Origin: Acidobacteriota bacterium
Lineage (GTDB): Bacteria > Acidobacteriota > UBA6911 > RPQK01 > JAJDTT01
Length of the DNA: 64,000 nucleotides
Assembly (NCBI GenBank): GCA_965263035.1
Contig: OZ253580.1
Coordinates: 1,024,001-1,088,000, forward strand
Direction: 5' to 3'
Numbering within the stretch: the stretch's first letter is position 1; each line of letters begins with the position of its first letter. A model generated the notes under the pieces. The model had not been told where the DNA came from. It did no database searches and saw nothing but the letters and a program-made list of their open reading frames with translations. Of the stretch, positions 1,451 through 16,074 are shown in pieces. Made by a program: the position numbers and the translations under genes.

Positions 1451-1492
1451 AATGTACGTTCCTTGATTCCCTGGCGTGGTTTCCGTCCAAGA

Positions 1493-2917
1493 TCAAGCCC
1501 GACCTCCGATGGGCAAGAGTTCGACGCCTTCTCCCTCCTCGGGTTTCTTGATGCGAAACCGGACCGAGGTCACTTCGGCTCCGTGGGGACCGAATCTGTT
1601 TTTGAAGCCTTCCCGCTGGCCCACCATGAAGATAGAGCCGTCCTCCAGAACGCAGGCGCTCGGATAGTAGGACTTGGGATCACACGTGTAGCCACGTCCC
1701 GGCGCCGGTTTCACCCAGGTCCTCCCACTGTCGCGGCTGTAGATCACCTCCCCGTTGTTCGCCACCAGATGGGTATCGCTGCCGAGTTTGTGTCGGCCTC
1801 CAAATACGACGACGGCGACTCCGTCGGGTGTCACGACCACGTCCCCTTTTCTGTACAGCTTGGGCCCGCGATACTCGCTTCCAAAGTTGGGGTCTTCGAC
1901 AATGGGGTCGGTCAGGAGCAGACGTGGCGGGGACCAGGTCCGACCGTCGTCGTACGACTGATACCAAGCCGAGGTCGGCCTGCAAGGGAAACCCAGGCTG
2001 CCATCCGGCAAGTAGGCGGCCGTGCCCTCATCCGCATCGAAGTCATTGCTCCCAATCACCGACACGGTCGACCACGTGCGGCCCTTATCCTCAGAGCGCA
2101 TGAGTAACATGAGCCAGCGAGGGTCTTCGCTGGGCCAGCCTTTGCCCCCGGGAATGGGTGAGCCGGCGGCCAATATCATCAGCGCGCCGTCCTTAGCCTC
2201 AAACATACTGTGGGGAGCGTCCATGAACAAGGGCCCCACGAAGCGGGTCACCTCCTTCCACGTGTAACCGTTATCATCGCTTCGAAAGATAAGGGTTTTC
2301 GACTGCCTATTGGCCGCAATCCGGGCAAATTCAAGGGGTGTCGCGGGCATCCGCCTCCAGTATCCCCAATGGGCTTCCAGCCGCGCACCTGCAAATATCG
2401 TTCCGTCCCTCAGCTGCACCACGTGATTCATTACATAAGCGCCACGCACCACCGGAAAGGAACGGGGCCGGCTCCAGGTTTTCCCCTCGTCCCGGCTGCG
2501 GATCCACATCATTCTTCCGCCGTCGGGCGCATCCCAGTCCAAGAGCCAGGACTGGTCCGGCCGTTTCCAGCGCTCCATCGCCTCAGGAGGAATGTCCCAG
2601 GGGGTGGGCCAGGAAGCGTGCCAATAACCGGCTGAGAAGGTCACGAACAGGTCGCCGTTCTGCAGCCGGCACACCGTCGGCCACCCACAGTAACCGCCAA
2701 ACCCGCGGAAAGGTTCCGGCGGGTTGACGTCGGGCGAGACGATGATCCGTCGATACTTCTCGAAATCCATCGCGCGTTCATCGCCCGTAATCAGAGCGTC
2801 AACAGGTGGAATGGAAGCCGCGGGCGACTTCTTTGTACCTGCTCTGACGAGACTGGTTGTTGCCAAAGCGGTTGCTGCAGCGGACAGATATTCCCGGCGG
2901 GTCAATTGGACGGCCAT
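1493..2917 (-). CDS. Tat-exported BNR/Asp-box sialidase-like beta-propeller protein
   Basis: TRREYL twin-arginine leader; Asp-boxes SRDEGKTW, SDDNGYTW, SEDKGRTW, SYDDGRTW, SRDSGRTW. ATG 2917 chosen for its purine-rich RBS. Confidence 0.8.
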   Translation of the reverse strand: MAVQLTRREYLSAAATALATTSLVRAGTKKSPAASIPPVDALITGDERAMDFEKYRRIIVSPDVNPPEPFRGFGGYCGWPTVCRLQNGDLFVTFSAGYWHASWPTPWDIPPEAMERWKRPDQSWLLDWDAPDGGRMMWIRSRDEGKTWSRPRSFPVVRGAYVMNHVVQLRDGTIFAGARLEAHWGYWRRMPATPLEFARIAANRQSKTLIFRSDDNGYTWKEVTRFVGPLFMDAPHSMFEAKDGALMILAAGSPIPGGKGWPSEDPRWLMLLMRSEDKGRTWSTVSVIGSNDFDADEGTAAYLPDGSLGFPCRPTSAWYQSYDDGRTWSPPRLLLTDPIVEDPNFGSEYRGPKLYRKGDVVVTPDGVAVVVFGGRHKLGSDTHLVANNGEVIYSRDSGRTWVKPAPGRGYTCDPKSYYPSACVLEDGSIFMVGQREGFKNRFGPHGAEVTSVRFRIKKPEEGEGVELLPIGGRA

Positions 2918-3631
2918 CTCTTTGCCCCCTCGTTTTGCTGAATTGAAATATAAAGACCTCGGCATGAGAAAATCTCAGTGACTGCTATTTTTTTATAACA
3001 TATAAAGTTTCGCCTGACGATTACGTGTGCCATCAACCGATCTGCTCGTGCCATCAGGACTTCCAGGATCTCCCACCGGTCTCCTCGTGGGTCCATCACC
3101 AGCGGCGTCTCGGACTCCACCCGACGGAGGGGCGGCCATCTCCAGCAGATTATCCCTTAACCACTCTCTCAGACCTTTCGATTCATCTGTCGACTCCACC
3201 GTTCCACGGCTTTTTTCACTCCAAACCCCTCTTCCAACGTTGGGATCATCTCACCAAGCCGGGCCGAGGCTCGATCCTGAACCCTGTAAATCACCTTCCA
3301 GACCAATCAAGCCCCAGTCTGAGGCACTCCCGCGGAAACACTTCCCGAATACTTCCAAATAACTCGCCTGCCGGTCAGGAGCCCACGCTTTTCGAAGCCG
3401 ACAGTTTCCTTATTCTTGGAGAATTCCGACCCTTTCTACTTCTCCGATCTCATTGCCCTACAGGTATTAACTTCTTGAGGCAATACTGCCTTAATATTTA
3501 GAAAAAATCGTGTCGTCCCAAAACCGTAGATTGATATCGCTAACGTAAAAGTGACCCACCCCAATCAGACCTTGGTTCTAGGCTGTTGGTGACAAACAAG
3601 CAGTCAGAACGGAGGTCGGAAGTTGATTGGG

Positions 3632-5152
3632 ATGGGTCAGTACGAGCTTATCAGAACGGCGCACCGCGTATACGGCAAGAGTATCCGTCAGATCCAACGG
3701 GAGACGGGGCATCACCGGGTGACGATTCGCAAGGCGTTGAGGGGATTGGAGCCGAAGTACCGGCGAGTCAAGCCGGTCCCCCATCCGGTGATGGGTCCGG
3801 TGACGGAGACGGTCAAGCGGTGGTTGCAGGAAGATCGGGAGCGGCCGGTCAAGCAGCGGCACACAGCGCGGCGGATCTACACCCGGCTGGTGGAAGAAGA
3901 GGGCTTTCAGGGGAGTGAGACGACGGTGCGGCGCTCTCGTGCGGGAATGGAAAGCGGCCCAGGGCTGGGGGCGGAAGGAGGCGGTGGTGCCGTGGGATCC
4001 GGAGGCCGCCCGCGATGCCGAGGTGGATTGGGGGACGGCCTGGGGGCGGATGGCCGGACAGCGGCGGCGAATCAAGCTCTTCGCGATGCGTTCCCGGTAT
4101 TCGGGCAAGGCGTTCGTCCGAGCCTACCCGTGGGAGCGAGACCGAGATGTTCTTCGATGCCCACATGCAGGCCTTCGAGTACTTCGGAGGCGTCTTTCCG
4201 GAACTGCTCTACGACAACCTGAGCCTGTCGGTTCGGCGGATTCTGCGAGGCAAGCAGCGGACCGAGCAGGAGCGCTTCGTCTGCTTTCGAAGTTACTACA
4301 CGTACCGGGCCCGGTTCTGCACCCCGGGTCAAGGACGGGAGAAGGGGGGGGGAGGGGCTCATCGGCTTTGCCCGCCGGAACTTCTTGGTGCCGGTGCCTG
4401 AAGTGGCCGACTTCCAGGAGCTCAACGAGCAGTTGCTCGGACGCTGTCAGGAGCAGGGCAGCCGAAGGATCCGGGGTCGGGAGGATGCCCGCAGCATCGA
4501 GGAGCGCTTCGAGGCGGAGCGAGCGTCGCTGCTGCCGCTGCCGGAGTCTCCCTTCGAGAACACGAAGGTTCTGCGGGTCCGAGTGGACCGGTACCAGACG
4601 GTGAACGTGGACCGCAATCGCTACTCGGTGCCGGGGGCCTACGTGGGACGGTGGCTCCGGGCCCATGTGGGCTGCGAGAAGGTCGAAGTCTACGCCCAGG
4701 AACGGAAGCTGGTCGAGCACGAGCGGATCTTCGCCAACAGCAAGTGGCAGATCGACCCCCGGCACTACCTGGATCTGATCCAACAACGGGTGGGGGCCTT
4801 CGAGAGGGCCCGGCCGATCCTCCAGTGGCGGGCTCGCTGGCCCCAGAGTTACGAAGTGCTGCTGCAGACCCTGCGCCAGAAACGGGGCGAGAACGCCGGC
4901 ACCCGGGAGTTCGTCCGGATCTTGAAGCTGCACCGAGAGCATGAATCTCCGCTGGTGGAGCGAGCCGTCGCGACAGCGCTCGAGCACCACTGTCCCGGAT
5001 ACGAGTCGATCCGCCACCTGATCGGACTGGAATCGAGCCCGCTGCGGGTGCTGGCGCCGCTGCCCCAGGACCGGATACCCGGGGTGACGGACCAAGCGGT
5101 GAGTCGGACCCGGGTCGAGGCCTTCAACGCCTTGCTGGCGGAGGCGCCATGA
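3632..5152 (+). pseudogene. istA: IS21 transposase IstA, about three frameshifts
   Basis: N-terminal HTH (SIRQIQRETGHHRVTIRKAL), QRHTARRIYTRL, EVDWG, YDNL, EKG, VDRNRYSVP spread over ORFs 3623, 3915, 4015 and 4385. Frameshifts could be real or sequencing errors. Confidence 0.9.
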
Positions 5153-5477
5153 ACCGGGCCAGTGAGCGCGTCCTGTTGGAGGATTGTCTGAAGCAACTGC
5201 GCCTGCCGGCCATGCTCCGAGAGTATCCGGCCTGTGCCCGCCAAGCGCGAGAATCGGGTCAGAGATACGAGGGCTTCTTGTTGGACCTGCCCCACCGGGA
5301 GTTGGAACAACGTCTGGCCAACCGGCTCAAGCACCGGCTCAAGGAAGCCCGGTTTCCGATGCTGAAGACGTTGGAGAAGACCGATCTCACGCGGTGGCCC
5401 TCGCTGGACGGTAGGGAGATCCGGGAGTTGGCCGCAGGAGACTGGATCAAGCAGCACGAGAATCTCGTCTTGCTGGG
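5149..5477 (+). pseudogene. istB: IS21 helper ATPase IstB, 5' part (interrupted)
   Basis: ATGA overlap with istA; LKQLRLPAM...RLKEARFP...ENLVLLG, cut at the start of Walker A. Confidence 0.92.
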
Positions 5478-5511
5478 CCGTCCCGATCCAGTGACATACT
5501 GCACCACCTTT
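5474..5511 (-). promoter_or_regulatory. Orphan RBS plus ATG at the element end (first 8 codons MSLDRDGP of a split gene)
   Basis: Minus strand reads TAG(recombinase stop)-AAAGGTGGTGCAGT-ATG at 5497; in frame with the start-less ORF at the other end after circularisation. Confidence 0.7.
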
Positions 5512-7597
5512 CTACATCGTTGATGTCATGAGACTTAACTGTGACGCGTTGGCACCTCGCGGAACTCTTCTGCCGCTTCGAATGGCCTCGGCGGCTCGTT
5601 GGACTGCTTCAGATCGCAAGTCCGAGTACCGAATCTAACAGGGTGCCATGGCCACCACCTGCCGTGCTGGCAGGAGTTTGCGGCCAACCAGCTTGCGTAC
5701 GGAACTGGGGCTGATGCCCGGTTGCGAAGCCGCTTCTTCCATGTTGCAGAACTCGTGAAGGCGTTGCGAGAAGGCCGGGATGCGCCGATAGTTGCGCAAG
5801 CTGCGAACACGAGTCTCGTTCCAGCTGTGCCCTCGTCCCGTCTTCTTGCCCATTCGGTTCAGGATCCGGGCGATCTGATCGTCACTCACCTGCCGGGCCA
5901 ACTGGCGAACCAACTTCACCACGTCCTCCTCGGTGCAGTAGCGATGGCGACCGGTGGAGTTCTTTCGTACCTGCAGCCGCGTGTGTTTGCCCCCGCGCCA
6001 GCGGATGATCAACTCCACCTGCCGCCTACCCTGATCCCCGCTCGCAATGATCTCTTCAATCAACCTGCGTGCGATCCGCTTCTTGATCCGATTGTCGGTG
6101 ACGGCATCGGACCAGAGCGCTGGAAACTGCTCGGCTAGCCGTAGCAGTTCCACTCGATACGGTCCCAGCGAACTCGACTGTTCCTGCTCGATCTGCTCCA
6201 GCCGGGACTGCACTTGGCGAACTCTCTTCAGGGCTTCGTTCCACTTCCGCTCCAGCGTCGCAGCCACCAGCCGGTTCTCTGGGTCGACCGCATCGTACTG
6301 TCGCTCTCGTCCGTCTTGCCTGGTAGCGCAATTGCTCGAGTTCGCGCTCCAGGAGTTCTCGTTTCAACCGGTCTCGCTCGGAGGCTTCCTCTTCCACTCG
6401 CAGAGCCGCCTCGATCGCTCCTGGGGACACCACTCGCACGATCTCCCGCCCAACGGCCTGGTCGACCTTGCGTCCACCAAACGAGATGCAACCGGCGACT
6501 CCGTGGTTGATCTGCCCCCCTCGACAATGGTAGCGGGGGATCCGTCCCCCAACCCCAGCGTAGGCCACGTGCAGCCGACGACCGCAGTGCCCACACAACA
6601 GCAGGCCCGCCAGCAAACTCTTTCCCGAACGAACGGCTCCCTTCGCCATTTTGCCTCGCATCTGAGCGTTGTCGGCCAAGAGGCGTTGATTCCCTTCAAA
6701 GCGCTTCCAGTCGATGTAGCCTGGGTGATGTTCCTGGAGCCAGACCGTCCACTGTTCCGGGTGGGCCCGGGACCGAATCCGTTTGCGAGCTTGACCGTCC
6801 TTCAAGTAGGTCTCGGTCCAGGTGCGCCCCCAGGCGTAGGCTCCCGTGTACAGGGGGTTCTTCAACAACCTCAACACCGTGCTGTAGACGGGCAGCTTCC
6901 ACACGGTCTCCCAACCCCATGCGCTGTGCCGTTTCACGGGCAACTGGATCCTTTCTTGCCGATACCAGAGCAGGGTCTGACGGGCGCTGCCCGTCTCGGA
7001 GAATTTAGCAAACACTCCCTGAATACTTTCCTGCACCCGGCGGTCCGGATCCTTCTCCAGACGCCCGTTCGGGGTCAGGACGAAACCCACGGGCAAAGAG
7101 GTGTACAGCTCTCCCCGAGCCGCTTTGCTCAGCAGTCCCTGTTGGGCGCGCTGCCGGAGCAGGCTCAGCTCCGCCTCGCTCAGCGTTCCCTTCAACCCGA
7201 GAAGCAGTCGGTCGTTGCTGAGACGCGGATCGTAGACGTCCTCGCTGTCGACGATCAGGGTACGCGTCAGCGAGCACAGGTCCTGCAATCGGTACCCGTC
7301 GGCATTGTTGCGAGCCAGTCGAGAGGCGTCCAGGCTAAAGATGGCTCCACTTCGTCCCAGGCTGACCTCGGTGGTCAAGCGTTGAAAGCCCACCCGATCG
7401 ACCGTGGAGGCGCCCGAGCGCCCCTGATCCTCGTCGATGACCTCGGCTTGGCTCCATCCGAAGTCTTTGGCTTGGCCACCAGCTGGTACTGCACAGTCGG
7501 CGGCCTCCTGGTGGCAACGGACTTGCTGCAGGCTCGACTGGCGCACGTACACGTAGGCTTTGCGTCTCAGATGATCCTCAGTGATCTTCCCTCTCAT
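5512..7597 (-). pseudogene. Large serine recombinase (resolvase + recombinase + Zn-ribbon + C-terminal HTH), frameshifted
   Basis: KITEDHLRRKAYVYVRQSS catalytic motif, DEDQGRSG, SRLARN, DRLLLGLKGTLSEAEL, NPLYTGAY, CGHCGRRL Zn ribbon. Frameshift near 6300, premature TAG at 5635-5637, and the same frame continues to TAG at 5512. Confidence 0.9.
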
Positions 7598-7736
7598 CGG
7601 CGTCCTCCTTTCGCCCTCGCCAGGCCTGCTCGAGTAGCTGAGCCATCAGACGCAGCAGTTTCTTCCGGGTCGAAGGGGGGAGCTGGTGCCACTCGGGCTG
7701 GTTGGGGGTTGCAAACGCGAGCTCCTTTTGCTTCAT
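7578..7736 (-). CDS. 52-aa accessory protein upstream of the recombinase (below ORF-track cutoff)
   Basis: GGAGGA RBS; MKQKELAFATPNQPEWHQLPPSTRKKLLRLMAQLLEQAWRGRKEDADEREDH; overlaps the recombinase start. Confidence 0.6.
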   Translation of the reverse strand: MKQKELAFATPNQPEWHQLPPSTRKKLLRLMAQLLEQAWRGRKEDADEREDH

Positions 7737-8052
7737 GCCGTCCTCCCGGGGGAAGGTTGCCCCGGGCGGTCTGACAATCCGACTTCGACCCGAAGGTCTC
7801 GATCAGGTCCTGGAGTTCTTGCAAGGCGCAGACGCTGCAACGCGGCTGGTCGTCGACCCGACCCACTGCCGCAGCTTCGGGCTGGCAAATCCAGCGTGGG
7901 ATCTTCGCGTGAGTGCCGTCCGGGAGCCGGCAGGTGAACCACTCACCCCACTGTCCGTGACGAGGATGTGCGGCCAGTTCAAGGTCTCGTCCTGCTAAGG
8001 GGTGAATGGGGTAGTGGATTCTAACGGAGGTCCCAATGTGAGCATTGTGTCG
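7594..8052 (-). CDS. Start-less accessory ORF (Y4bD/DUF5372-like by recollection of its HP-HPL-G / LPDG-IP-W motifs)
   Basis: RHNAHIGTSVRIHYPIHPLAGRD...CRLPDGTHAKIPRW...CSVCALQELQDLIE; no ATG inside the element before the conserved part; stop overlaps the recombinase ATG (ATGA). Confidence 0.6.
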   Translation of the reverse strand, partial: RHNAHIGTSVRIHYPIHPLAGRDLELAAHPRHGQWGEWFTCRLPDGTHAKIPRWICQPEAAAVGRVDDQPRCSVCALQELQDLIETFGSKSDCQTARGNLPPGGRHEAKGARVCNPQPARVAPAPPFDPEETAASDGSATRAGLARAKGGRR

Positions 8053-8056
8053 TGGG

Positions 8057-8564
8057 TCCGTCCGGCACGGGCAAGACCCATGCGGCGATCGCCCTGGGTG
8101 TGGAGGGCTGCCGTCGCGGTTACCGGGTGTTGTTCTCGACGGCGGCCCAGCTGGTGAACCAACTGGTGGAAGCGCGGGAGGAGCGGACCCTGGAACGACT
8201 GCAGCGGCGCCTCGACCGCTTTTCGCTTCTGATCGTGGACGAGCTCGGCTACATCCCCTTCTCTCAGGAAGGGGCGCAGCTCCTGTTCCAGGTCTTTGCC
8301 AACCGCTACGAGAGGGCTTCGCTGCTGGTGACCTCGAACCTGGCCTTTGCGGAGTGGATCCAGGTGTTCCTGGATGCTCCCCTGACGGCGGCATTGCTGG
8401 ACCGTTTGACGCATCATTGGCACATTCATGAGTTCGACTGGGAGAGTCTCCGCTTGGCCGAGAGCTTGAAACGGCAGCAGAAGAAACGGCGCCCAACCGC
8501 CGGATGGCCGCCGGACCTCCCGGTGACCGTGGGGAAGGAAACCCATCCCGAGGAGGGTCGGTAG
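8057..8564 (+). pseudogene. istB: IS21 helper ATPase IstB, 3' part
   Basis: PSGTGKTH Walker A, LLIVDELGY Walker B, TSNL, AALLDRLTHH, GES-like WESLRL. Confidence 0.93.
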
Positions 8565-13609: not shown

Positions 13610-16074
13610 CTGCCCTATACCCACAAATAGTGCTGGACAAACAAGAATGCCTGTCGTAGTCTCCACGACATGGCAGTTCAGAACCAGATCAAGCGCACCT
13701 TGAGCCGAGAGTTGGATCGTTTGCACGCCGTGATGAGGCGGGAGAAGTTCGCCCACCGGACGGCGCTGGCGGACCGGGTCTGCTCGGAGTTTGGATTTCA
13801 CGATGCCCGAGGGCGGGCGCAACGGAGCGGCTGCCTGAAGGCGCTCCGGGAGCTGGAGGCGGGCGGACGGATTCGTCTGCCGACGCCGCGACGGCGGGTG
13901 AAACATTGCGGGCCCCGAGGACTGGGCCGTGCGGTGCCGGAGCCGGTGGAAGTGCCCGAGACGGTGGACGGCGTGCGGGAGCTGGAGTTGATTCTGGTGG
14001 AGACGGGTCCGCAACGAGCGCTCTGGAACGAGTTGATGGCGCGAGAGCATCCACGGGGCGCGGGGCCGTTGGTGGGTGCTCAACTACGCTATCTGGTGGG
14101 CTCGGCGCACGGCTGGCTGGGGGGCTTGGGGTTCGGGGCGGCGGCGTTGCGGTTGCGGGACCGGGACCGCTGGATCGGATGGGATGAGGAACAACGCCGG
14201 GCGCACCTGCACCGGGTGGTGGGGCTGAGCCGGTTTCTGATCCGTCCGTCAGTGAGGTGTCGTAATCTGGCCTCCCGGGTGCTGGGGGAGGTGTTGCGGC
14301 GGCTGGGTCCGGAGTTCCAGGCGCGCTACGGCTACCGTCCCTGGCTGGTGGAGACCTTCGTGGAGACGGCTCGCCACGATGGGGCCAGTTTGCGCGCCAC
14401 GAACTGGAGGGTTCTGGGGCAGACGCAGGGTCGAGGCCGGCAAGATCGGGCGCACCGGGGTGCGGAGACGAGCAAGGCGATCTATGGGTATGAGTTGTGC
14501 CGGGATTGGCGTCGGCGGTTGGGGGTGGGACCGGCGCCGAGGCGGGGAGTGGAACCGATGTCGGAGGGCGAGGGACTGGAGGGAGAGGGCTGGGCTCAGC
14601 AGGAGTTGGGCGGGGCGCCGCTGGGAGACCGGCGCTTGAGTCGGCGACTGGTGGAGAGTGCGCACCGTCAGGCGCAGGAGCCGGGGCGGGCGTTCACGGG
14701 AGTGGCGCGGGGCGATCCGGCGGCGGTCAAGGGATACTACCGGCTGATCGACCAGCCGGAAGCCTCGGCGGTGACGGTGTCCAACATCCTGGCCCCGCAC
14801 CGGGAGCGGACCCGGCAGCGGATGCAGGGGCAGCGGACGGTGCTGTGCATCCAGGACGGGAGCGATCTGAACTTCACGCGGCACGGCCGGTGTGAGGGAC
14901 TGGGGGTGATCGGGCGCAACCAGACGGGAGCGACGGCGCGGGGACTGCATCTGCACGCGACGCTGGTGGTGAGTGAGACGGGGCTGCCGCTGGGGGTGTT
15001 GCGGGCGAAGCTGGACGCGCCGAAGCCGGGACCGGTGGCCACGCGGAAAAAGAAGAAGACGTATCGCTGGATCGAGGGACTTCGGGACTGCGCCGAGGTG
15101 TCGCGGTCCCTCGACGGGGTGCGGGTGGTCAGCGTGGTGGACCGGGAGGCGGATTTTTTCGCACTGTTCGCCGAGCAACGAGCGTCTCCGGAGGTGGAGT
15201 TGCTGGTGCGTGCGAAGCAGGATCGGGTGCTGAAGCGGAAGACCCGGGCGAAGGCGGCCGGGAAAAGCGGGGATCCGGACCAGGAGCAGAAGCGGAAGCT
15301 GTTCGGGCGCCTGCGATCGGCGCCGGTGCGGGCCCGGATGCTGCTGGAGGTGAAGCGTCAGAGTGCGCGGATCAAGGCCAGCAAGCAGGCGGCCCGCCCG
15401 CGGCGGCTGGCGCGGGTGGCACGGATGGAACTGCGCTACGAGACCCTGACGATTCCGGCGCCGCGCGGGAACCCAACCGGCATCCCGTCGCTGAGACTGT
15501 CGGTGGTGCACGCGCGGGAGGTCGCGCCGCCGGCGCAGGGGAAGCGCCTGGAATGGTTCCTGCTCACCACCCTGCCGGTGACCGATGTCGAGACGGCGCA
15601 GCAACTGCTGAGATGGTATGCCCTGCGCTGGCGGGTGGAGGATTATTTCCGGGTGCTCAAGACCGGATGCCGGGTGCAACAGCTCCAGCACCAAACCGCC
15701 GAACGTCTGAAACGGGCCATCGCCATGCACGCCGTCATCGCCTGGCGGATCATGCTGATGACGCTGTTGGGGCGAGAGGACCCGGATCTGCCGGCGCAGT
15801 TGCTGTTTTCCGATCTGGAAATCCGGGTCCTGGGGGCGTTTGCCGCGTCGCGACGATACCCACCGCCGGAAGACCTGGGGGCGGCCGTGCTCGTGCTGGC
15901 CCGCCTGGGAGGATATCTGGCTCGTAAACACGACCCCCCACCCGGGCATCAACTGCTGTGGCAGGGCTACGTCACGCTTTACGGCATGTGTCTGGGCTTC
16001 GCTTTACGAGAAGAAACATGAACGAAACCAGACCCAGGCTAATGTGCCCTGTGCAATATGTGGGTAAAGGGCAG
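13610..16074 (+). mobile_element. IS4-family element carrying a DUF4338-fused transposase
   Basis: Imperfect IRs CTGCCCTATACCCACAAATAGTGC / GCAATATGTGGGTAAAGGGCAG; 8-bp TSD GGCTAGTC at 13602-13609 and 16075-16082. Confidence 0.93.
13670..16021 (+). CDS. DUF4338 (DruA-like) domain fused to an IS4/IS50-type DDE transposase
   Basis: N-half RDRWIGW, SRFLI, NLASRVL, YGYRPWLVETFV, GQTQGRG; C-half LGDRRL, IQDGSDL, VDREAD, WFLLTT, YALRWRVEDYFRVLK, ARLGGYL. Confidence 0.88.
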   Translation: MAVQNQIKRTLSRELDRLHAVMRREKFAHRTALADRVCSEFGFHDARGRAQRSGCLKALRELEAGGRIRLPTPRRRVKHCGPRGLGRAVPEPVEVPETVDGVRELELILVETGPQRALWNELMAREHPRGAGPLVGAQLRYLVGSAHGWLGGLGFGAAALRLRDRDRWIGWDEEQRRAHLHRVVGLSRFLIRPSVRCRNLASRVLGEVLRRLGPEFQARYGYRPWLVETFVETARHDGASLRATNWRVLGQTQGRGRQDRAHRGAETSKAIYGYELCRDWRRRLGVGPAPRRGVEPMSEGEGLEGEGWAQQELGGAPLGDRRLSRRLVESAHRQAQEPGRAFTGVARGDPAAVKGYYRLIDQPEASAVTVSNILAPHRERTRQRMQGQRTVLCIQDGSDLNFTRHGRCEGLGVIGRNQTGATARGLHLHATLVVSETGLPLGVLRAKLDAPKPGPVATRKKKKTYRWIEGLRDCAEVSRSLDGVRVVSVVDREADFFALFAEQRASPEVELLVRAKQDRVLKRKTRAKAAGKSGDPDQEQKRKLFGRLRSAPVRARMLLEVKRQSARIKASKQAARPRRLARVARMELRYETLTIPAPRGNPTGIPSLRLSVVHAREVAPPAQGKRLEWFLLTTLPVTDVETAQQLLRWYALRWRVEDYFRVLKTGCRVQQLQHQTAERLKRAIAMHAVIAWRIMLMTLLGREDPDLPAQLLFSDLEIRVLGAFAASRRYPPPEDLGAAVLVLARLGGYLARKHDPPPGHQLLWQGYVTLYGMCLGFALREET

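Follow-up and report, generated by a model that had tools for sequence, protein, structure and literature searches.

A serine recombinase element within istB and a DUF5372 gene that is probably whole only when the element's ends are joined

An element inserted in the Walker A codons of istB

The window analysed here is a stretch of 64,000 nucleotides from an Acidobacteriota bacterium (contig OZ253580.1, positions 1,024,001 to 1,088,000), and our subject is an element of 2579 bp within it that interrupts the istB gene of an IS21-family insertion sequence (IS). On balance we think it probable that an IS-like element some 2.6 kb in size has left a decayed copy here, and that in this element a serine recombinase is accompanied by a DUF5372 gene that is split by the attachment site and becomes whole only when the two ends are joined. 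The IS21-family host spans 3623-8564, with Pfam IstB_IS21 matches on both halves of its istB. The 5' part of this target gene lies on the plus strand at 5149..5484 (E 1.3e-18, profile positions 3-101) and runs up to the Walker A codons (..LVLLG RP); the 3' part resumes with GTGKTH on the same strand at 8064..8564 (E 7.7e-50, profile positions 98-236). Between them the element occupies 5485..8063, with its genes on the minus strand. These limits were set from the aligned ends of four genome copies and from the empty site of a sister copy. They shift the 5478-8056 of the original prediction by 7 bp and leave the register unchanged.

The element's gene for a large serine recombinase is a pseudogene here (5635..7597, minus strand). 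It is broken into two open reading frames (ORFs; 6056-7597 and 5635-6267) that together match Pfam Resolvase, Recombinase and Zn_ribbon_recom. Comparison with the intact recombinase of a sister copy, L002, reveals indels near 7504, 7497 and 7473 and a +1 shift near 6308. There is also an early stop at 5635-5637; the intact gene would end at 5513. With these frameshifts and this stop, the window copy is dead. Ahead of the recombinase on the same strand are a conserved 52-aa ORF (MKQKE..LLRLMAQLLEQAW; 7578..7736) and, at the element's far end, a long frame that has no start (7594..8056; frame 7594-8052/8056). This start-less body holds a DUF5372-like domain at about 7735-8010; its tail shares bases with the 52-aa ORF, as its stop does with the recombinase ATG. 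The opposite end of the element carries what the body lacks. On the minus strand (5495..5512), a ribosome-binding site (RBS)-like AAAGGTGGTG at 5503-5512 is followed by an ATG at 5497-5495 and by leader codons that reach the element end; AAAGGTGGTGCAGT precedes this ATG, downstream of the intact-recombinase stop position (5513-5515). As long as the element is integrated, translation from this ATG would yield no more than a short dead-end peptide, just as the original prediction had described.

That prediction took the element to be bounded by a TGGG core, and TGGG is indeed present at both ends (5474-5477 and 8053-8056). Joining the ends there in silico gives a 160-aa ORF, the stop of which overlaps the recombinase ATG at 7597, and the same joining restores istB in frame as ...LVLLGPSGTGKTH..., so that both of these observations are reproduced. 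The position of the crossover itself had to be revised, as set out below.

The genome, a single 6.2-Mb contig, holds four copies of the element at 93-100% identity. Two of them (L002 and L003) are intact, each with a 694-aa recombinase, and L004 is truncated. All four lie in Walker A coding DNA, three in istB-like genes and one, L003, in a P-loop gene that matches AAA_19 weakly. Another genome of the genus contains a fifth copy, which again has istB as its target. The ORF that L003 (G000:C1:4250529-4256102) interrupts at the Walker A codons is long and not part of an IS; it runs open over more than 400 codons to either side and has weak AAA_19/AAA_11 matches; the site rule would therefore be set by the motif DNA and not by the IS.

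When the flanks were searched by blastn against the genome that contains the window, no uninterrupted paralogue of the target turned up, and two flank queries gave no empty-site match in 8 same-genus genomes. An empty site was found for L002: contigs of two public runs from two studies (X6 and X7) join position 1492 to 4071 and skip exactly 2578 bp. The site reads ...GTC TTC CTG GGT CCG CCC GGA GTG GGG AAG..., which encodes VFLGPPGVGKT, and six letters, CGCCCG on the target sense strand, fit both sides. The element has thus been excised precisely at the L002 site. Because of this empty site, the crossover is placed within CGCCCG, about 7 bp to the right of TGGG. At L003 only a dinucleotide is common to both ends (CC on the target sense strand, GG antisense), and a conservative crossover of 2 bp is consistent with the precise 2578-bp excision and its six common letters, with CC as the dinucleotide indicated by L003. 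In the window copy, the in-register letters common to both ends are CCG at 5483-5485 and 8062-8064, and homology to the L002 empty site would put the CC at 5483..5484 in the left attachment site (attL) and at 8062..8063 in the right (attR). An imperfect inverted repeat flanks the crossover, according to our by-eye reading of the aligned ends.

A TGGG crossover was rejected for the intact copies. Three different targets would all need TTCGCC after GGG; the empty site reads GGT CCG CCC; and a database protein described next, P0002, has Asn where the TGGG model predicts Asp. The correction does not change the register, and therefore both frames, the junction ORF and istB, survive it. In short, the comparison with an empty site moved the crossover off TGGG and left the two frames unbroken.

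The joined frame is also on record as a protein. A search of a public protein collection returned P0002 (160 aa, from one 95-kb contig). All 160 of its residues agree with the junction ORF that is predicted for L002 and L003 once the crossover is corrected; against the TGGG-based prediction, one residue differs (Asn vs Asp). Because P0002 is identical to the predicted junction ORF, joined DNA exists in some assembly. A search for the contig behind it gave 146 pattern matches among metagenome contigs, none of them confirmed, and genome contigs gave only the copy in G002.

Many DUF5372 representatives (P0004, P0041, P0060, P0094, P0150 and others) have a short Met-leader a few residues ahead of an HNAH-like motif, and the leader of P0004 resembles that of the window lineage. 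These may be further joined-form ORFs in public assemblies. A separate observation concerns the other end of L002 (4042-4099), where contigs of runs X1 and X6 match the last ~60 element bases (stop, RBS, ATG, leader) and diverge upstream of 4042. Such contigs point to related elements that have a different recombinase end, or to copies that were rearranged.

Split-gene layout and insertion targets among relatives

Relatives were collected by two routes. A small-ORF profile found them in 21/401 genomes of the phylum (7/61 relatives in a narrower search), and tblastn with the recombinase gave 1023 places in 498 plasmid records, mostly from Rhizobium, Sinorhizobium and Bradyrhizobium, with some from Paraburkholderia, Pseudomonas, Streptomyces, Rhodococcus and a cyanobacterium. 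We examined 38 loci, 27 from Acidobacteriota and 11 from plasmids, and both ends and both flanks could be read in 19. Finding the crossover automatically from the best local similarity did not prove reliable, and registers were instead chosen by hand for each locus, such that the joined flanks restore the conserved motif of the target protein.

In all 19 testable loci, the start codon that follows the recombinase stop reads in frame across the rebuilt junction into the DUF5372 body, and the window copy makes a twentieth. The original prediction had expected a terminal RBS and ATG to be in frame generally among homologues, rather than in about one third of them, and this expectation is borne out. 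Judged from these sequences, the in-frame layout is seen more often than chance would give. The 19 loci cover Acidobacteriota, Pseudomonadota and Actinomycetota, have different targets, and by our grouping represent about 16 lineages of common ancestry. One of them, L055, was at first taken as out of frame on a wrong target frame, and is in frame under the target-motif register. A GGTG-type RBS-like motif stands ahead of the junction start codon in most of the 19.

The distance from start codon to junction ranges from 2.3 to 12.7 codons, and the domain's invariant His falls at residue 24 to 34 of the joined protein. This varying distance means that there have been many indels between the ATG and the domain, all of them multiples of three, and frame-keeping indels of this kind are a mark of translated sequence and not of fixed DNA spacing. 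Starts within the element are rare, which agrees with the original prediction: 16/19 loci have no in-frame ATG, GTG or TTG between the boundary and the domain, and an internal ATG or GTG near the domain occurs in L059, L073 and L078. Among 138 representative proteins, 22 are called from a start right at the domain. Taken together, the sequences strongly support the central idea, namely that the gene becomes complete only once the element is excised and its ends are joined.

Element lengths run from 2149 to 3461 bp, plus one locus (L015) that is internally deleted at 1015 bp. The loci left out of the 19/19 count comprise L051, in which the tail abuts another transposase-like gene (by eye); L074, with the tail missing; L054, with an unclear register; two degenerate loci (L061, L062); one with a truncated recombinase (L056); three with no DUF5372 frame found upstream (L072, L079, L080); five with no recombinase downstream (L017, L064, L057, L052, L063); and five in which the contig ends inside the element (L049, L053, L034, L060, L026).

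Two plasmid loci deserve separate mention. At L073 (Bradyrhizobium barranii plasmid pBb323S2a, 1995-2498), RefSeq starts the DUF5372 gene at an ATG in the flanking IS66 transposase DNA (antisense), 5 codons beyond the element boundary, which shows how gene callers can mask the split gene. L072 (Nitrobacter hamburgensis X14 plasmid 2) has a related recombinase and the same tail (ATG, istB Walker A flank), with a LuxR-family gene directly upstream instead of DUF5372.

The restored flanks also reveal what the elements insert into (a slash marks the junction). FLG/PPGVGKTH and LGP/SGTGKTH are IstB motifs, Pfam-confirmed for the window and L065, and QGP/PGTGKSH lies in the gene with the weak AAA_19 match. 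CPQC/G was matched to Y2_Tnp (56.5 bits), WAI/WYKRLE to TnpB_IS66 (71.2 bits) and SPH/ALRH to Phage_integrase (41.4 bits). LFAGSD/GG and LFAGH/DEGG fall in DDE_Tnp_IS66 (191.9 bits for L081; RefSeq annotation for L073), and IRSF/FD and KFLD/RVDH in RVT_1 (34.3 bits for L058). FIR/WYN, RPRD/KAKVE and RSP/KDKTHIE reach rve at 24-25 bits, below the cut-off, and WE/KGSVE had no family match in Pfam. Pfam cut-offs were passed by 6/10 flanks tested, and the names IS91-like, IstA and group II intron that we give to some targets are our own reading of the sequences. Every insertion mapped in this way lies at a conserved motif, nearly all of them in genes of other mobile elements. This homing of all copies to conserved motifs is a point that the original prediction missed.

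The encoded proteins and their predicted complex

The junction ORF probably belongs to DUF5372 (PF17342; Y4bD/Y4pK). The window lineage's own P0002 scores 16.2 bits against a cut-off of 25, and the relative at L059 scores 60.5 bits. Among the 30 Atlas neighbours of the small ORF, 29 are DUF5372 clusters, and a 9-row profile including the window's sequence retrieves PF17342 proteins, named at source as 'DUF5372' or 'Y4bD/Y4pK family protein'. The DUF5372 profile search returned 4123 representative clusters at E<=1e-3. In the open literature we found nothing on this family, DUF5372 or Y4bD, with subscription journals, ISfinder and supplements outside the search.

Ratios of nonsynonymous to synonymous change (pN/pS) were compared between copies of the window lineage, and all of them rest on small counts: 0.35-0.58 for the DUF5372 domain, 0.8-4.8 for the last ~55 codons of the 160-aa frame, where it overlaps the 52-aa ORF, and 0.16-0.20 in three pairs for the 52-aa frame. 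On the strength of its low ratio relative to the overlapping frame, we take the 52-aa ORF to be a real gene; the 160-aa frame probably owes its long tail to this overlap and not to a function of its own. The 52-aa ORF has no Pfam or NCBIfam match; a look-alike was read by eye in L066. In a sub-family (L055, L056, L059, L060, L077, L078), its place between DUF5372 and the recombinase is taken by a gene of roughly 160-170 aa with helix-turn-helix matches (HTH_28, HTH_23), and these elements are 3.3-3.5 kb long. The original prediction had pictured the circle as coding almost throughout, head to tail. Two corrections apply to it: the window's recombinase is a split pseudogene, and the last ~55 codons of the 160-aa frame show no constraint as protein.

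The recombinase of L002 matches PF00239 at 69.4 bits (57.4 for the window ORF), PF07508 at 63.5 and PF13408 at 35.9. Y17, R19, Q20 and S21 are invariant in 8 recombinases, we read a coiled coil at about 395-500, and a C-terminal HTH_17-like stretch scores 22.4 bits, below cut-off. In NCBIfam, the recombinase matches XisF and CcrA/B only far below cut-off. With an R-Q-S resolvase domain, a Recombinase domain and a zinc ribbon with an embedded coiled coil, the protein has by its sequence the make-up of a large serine recombinase. The element, likewise, is short, multi-copy and appears to carry genes for its own movement only (DUF5372, the small ORF or helix-turn-helix gene, and the recombinase), as is typical of an insertion sequence. 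Scans of the integrated L002 element gave 0 promoter-like sites, the joined junction lying outside that scan, and no terminator-like sites.

The predicted structure of the DUF5372 protein has a confident core at residues 17-70 (per-residue confidence, pLDDT, about 86-95), consisting of five strands and followed by a helix at 82-97. A Foldseek search of this model against the PDB gave nothing at E<=0.001; the best matches were Tudor, SH3 and KOW-like barrels at E about 0.1-0.5.

Finally, a complex was predicted between the L002 recombinase and residues 1-105 of P0002. The interface score ipSAE was 0.69 in three runs, compared with 0.01 for the best of three controls. The 0.69 mark is reached by 58/80 solved complexes and by 2/110 mismatched pairs, counts that apply only roughly to the custom alignments used here. 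Contact agreement between runs was at least 72% and the pLDDT of the partner at least 66. The predicted interface joins recombinase residues 334-341, 361, 385-402, 480-517 and 530-540 to DUF5372 residues 24-27, 51-62 and 71-95. In our reading of the model, residues 24-27 are the conserved FHPL, and the recombinase side is the zinc ribbon together with the coiled coil at its two ends. According to a passage of PMC11795197, predictions place directionality factors, however much their folds differ, at the junction of zinc domain and coiled coil, where mutations affect directionality, and the title of PMC5814800 points to the same binding region for phiC31 gp3. The model thus supports binding of DUF5372 to the recombinase at the hotspot of directionality factors.

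Readings of the split gene and comparison with known systems

The mechanism that we favour would run as follows. The element would leave its site precisely, in the form of a circle, and insert again where a short sequence resembles a conserved coding motif, which in the window is that of the istB Walker A codons. Its first gene, DUF5372, would be split by the attachment site, with RBS, ATG and 2-13 leader codons just after the recombinase stop and the body at the opposite end, so that a protein with a normal start could come only from a joined form, whether circle or head-to-tail tandem. In the free form, transcripts passing the recombinase stop would bring the RBS and ATG into the DUF5372 body; such read-through is suggested by the absence of terminator-like sites in the scan. 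As the DUF5372 stop overlaps or abuts the recombinase start in most lineages, its translation should raise recombinase synthesis too. DUF5372 would then most likely bind the recombinase at the zinc-domain/coiled-coil junction and set the direction or efficiency of the reaction while the element is free, and integration would split the gene again and reset the switch. Translation from the junction, the binding and the reaction favoured are steps that we infer.

In its fullest form, this reading makes DUF5372 a directionality or commitment cofactor whose gene is split by integration and rebuilt by excision, such that the state of the DNA, and not a transcriptional circuit, sets and resets direction after each hop. 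It would also make this the drive of a very large undescribed IS-like family, with thousands of protein clusters in at least 3 phyla, that homes to conserved catalytic or nucleotide-binding motifs, nearly all in the genes of other mobile elements. We put this forward tentatively, giving it a little less than an even chance. The state-dependent switch of the original prediction, in which a factor is made only after excision, likewise gains from the 19/19 in-frame layout, the identity of P0002 and the predicted interface at the hotspot.

Several points weigh against the cofactor reading. The 'go back' joint of the circle was seen in none of four public runs mapped to L002, all of which are contigs, and contigs drop rare forms. 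The joined DNA behind P0002 may be a head-to-tail tandem copy instead of a circle. The 19 loci are related and so are not 19 independent trials, the other 19/38 are outside the test, the registers were chosen by hand from target motifs, the target of L066 is unidentified and the target frame of L075 is weakly open. An integrated-state product is possible in some lineages, given the three loci with an internal start and the 22/138 proteins called from the domain. The ATG and first codons lie inside the presumed recombinase-binding arms, and their conservation may be partly at the DNA level. The small-barrel matches are weak and speak for a fold class only. A classical directionality factor promotes excision, a role that is hard to reconcile with a protein produced only once excision is over; promotion of integration, commitment, or a burst-like trans-activation of other copies would fit better.

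The junction ATG might instead serve as a translational coupler, its translation opening the overlapping recombinase start and giving a burst of recombinase on the circle, with the peptide itself of little function. Such a coupler would be the equivalent, at the level of translation, of the junction promoters of other elements. The DUF5372 stop does overlap or abut the recombinase start, by our reading, in L002, L003, L020, L016, L018, L065, L050, L051, L071, L073, L074 and L075; the 160-aa frame shows no constraint in its tail; and a circle-formed recombinase promoter is on record for Tn4451/Tn4453, according to the title of Lyras and Rood 2000 (cited in PMC13023037). A peptide of little function is, however, hard to square with a domain that is conserved as protein across three phyla at pN/pS below 1, has a fold core predicted with confidence and, in the model, forms a strong interface with the recombinase. 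Moreover, in L055, L059, L077 and L078 a helix-turn-helix gene puts the junction frame ~1 kb from the recombinase, and the frame is kept. We regard the coupler as unlikely.

It also seems improbable to us that integrated copies produce DUF5372 as an ordinary excision factor, using non-canonical starts or starts in the flank, with the junction ATG an extra or a by-product of the attachment site. Here the predicted interface at the directionality-factor hotspot would be as expected, the frame of integrated copies continues into the flank without a stop, giving open stretches of 99-361 aa, RefSeq starts the L073 gene at a flank ATG, 22/138 representatives start at the domain, and the ATG lies within the imperfect inverted repeat of the arms, as we read them. 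But 16/19 loci have no canonical in-frame start inside the element, and L002 and L003 have none in their short open flank either. An RBS-like motif precedes the junction start in most loci, and the start-to-domain spacing varies by whole codons, which argues for selection on a reading frame over DNA spacing alone.

That the layout is a frozen accident, a chance ancestral in-frame ATG inherited unused because the geometry of the attachment site forbids indels, we consider highly improbable: all loci do descend from one family, and the conserved end words (GCAGTATG; codons for RH.AH) could be recombinase-binding sequence, but leader length and His position vary with the frame always kept, leader sequences differ with the target, and P0002 is this frame called as a gene on real joined DNA.

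A cofactor gene rebuilt by excision, as we favour, has partial parallels among known systems. In the clostridial elements Tn4451/Tn4453, the large resolvase TnpX excises a non-replicating circle, and joining of the ends switches on expression for the next step. Both systems thus combine a large serine recombinase, an excised circle and expression switched on by end joining. In Tn4451/Tn4453, however, a promoter is assembled for the recombinase, whereas here an RBS, start codon and leader would be joined to the body of a separate protein gene, in elements of 2.1-3.5 kb that have no cargo and home to conserved coding motifs. IS circles (IS3/IS911, IS30, IS21, IS110/IS1111) likewise acquire junction promoters (-35/-10) by circularisation, through DDE or DEDD transposases. 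State-dependent expression from circularisation is the shared trait, and circles are mentioned in PMC3219604, PMC11187229 and PMC11208158. They differ in that DDE/DEDD enzymes assemble -35/-10 boxes, while here a large serine recombinase assembles an open reading frame.

In the integration-dependent immunity of mycobacteriophage BPs and its relatives, the attachment site lies inside the repressor gene, as a passage of PMC4557955 describes. There, as here, an attachment site within an element gene lets the free and integrated forms encode different products. The present element falls outside that class: BPs uses a tyrosine integrase and truncates its repressor gene, which loses the 3' end and with it a degradation tag, whereas here a serine recombinase acts in an IS-sized element, the 5' end (RBS, ATG, leader) is lost and no normal integrated product is expected. 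A Pfam search of the junction ORF found no repressor-like family.

The known directionality factors phiC31 gp3, Bxb1 gp47, TG1 and SPbeta SprB are small partners without a common fold that are predicted at the junction of zinc domain (DBD2) and coiled coil, the region contacted by DUF5372 in our model. They are encoded by whole genes, are activated by transcription in the prophage and promote excision, whereas the DUF5372 gene is physically split when integrated and its partner role is a prediction. Helper-embedded satellites, in which an integrase clade targets prophage late genes (a passage of PMC10111431), share the habit of a mobile element that repeatedly homes into the genes of other mobile elements. 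Theirs is a different integrase clade; here the element is IS-sized, and the targets are transposase, IstB, TnpB, tyrosine-recombinase and group II intron reverse-transcriptase genes. None of the devices compared combines a serine recombinase with a protein gene that is given its 5' end by circularisation.

If the favoured reading is true, the element would clearly illustrate how a transposable element can possess a protein gene in its excised form alone, and would offer a simple physical memory of the free versus the integrated state. DUF5372, widespread and without a known role, would gain a testable function as a partner of large serine recombinases. The family would offer compact pairs of recombinase and cofactor whose attachment sites have been retargeted repeatedly to new short coding motifs, which bears on how serine integrases change specificity and direction and on genome engineering. 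It would also represent a class of elements that parasitises other mobile elements (IS21, IS66, IS91-type and rve-type transposases, tyrosine recombinases, group II introns) and may limit or shape IS loads in rhizobial plasmids and soil bacteria.

Two observations on the surroundings remain. The istA gene of the host IS21-family element (3623..5152, plus strand) lies in at least two ORF pieces (3623-4222 and 4385-5152), with Pfam matches to HTH_32 (weak) and Mu-transpos_C_2, and this IS21 copy may have been defective besides the insertion. The truncated sister copy, L004, is cut off by another repeat; the genome has 14 further places that match the adjoining 260 bases at 98-99% identity, including one within the window at 13610-13869 (C1:1037610-1037869), and this repeat is probably a high-copy insertion sequence.

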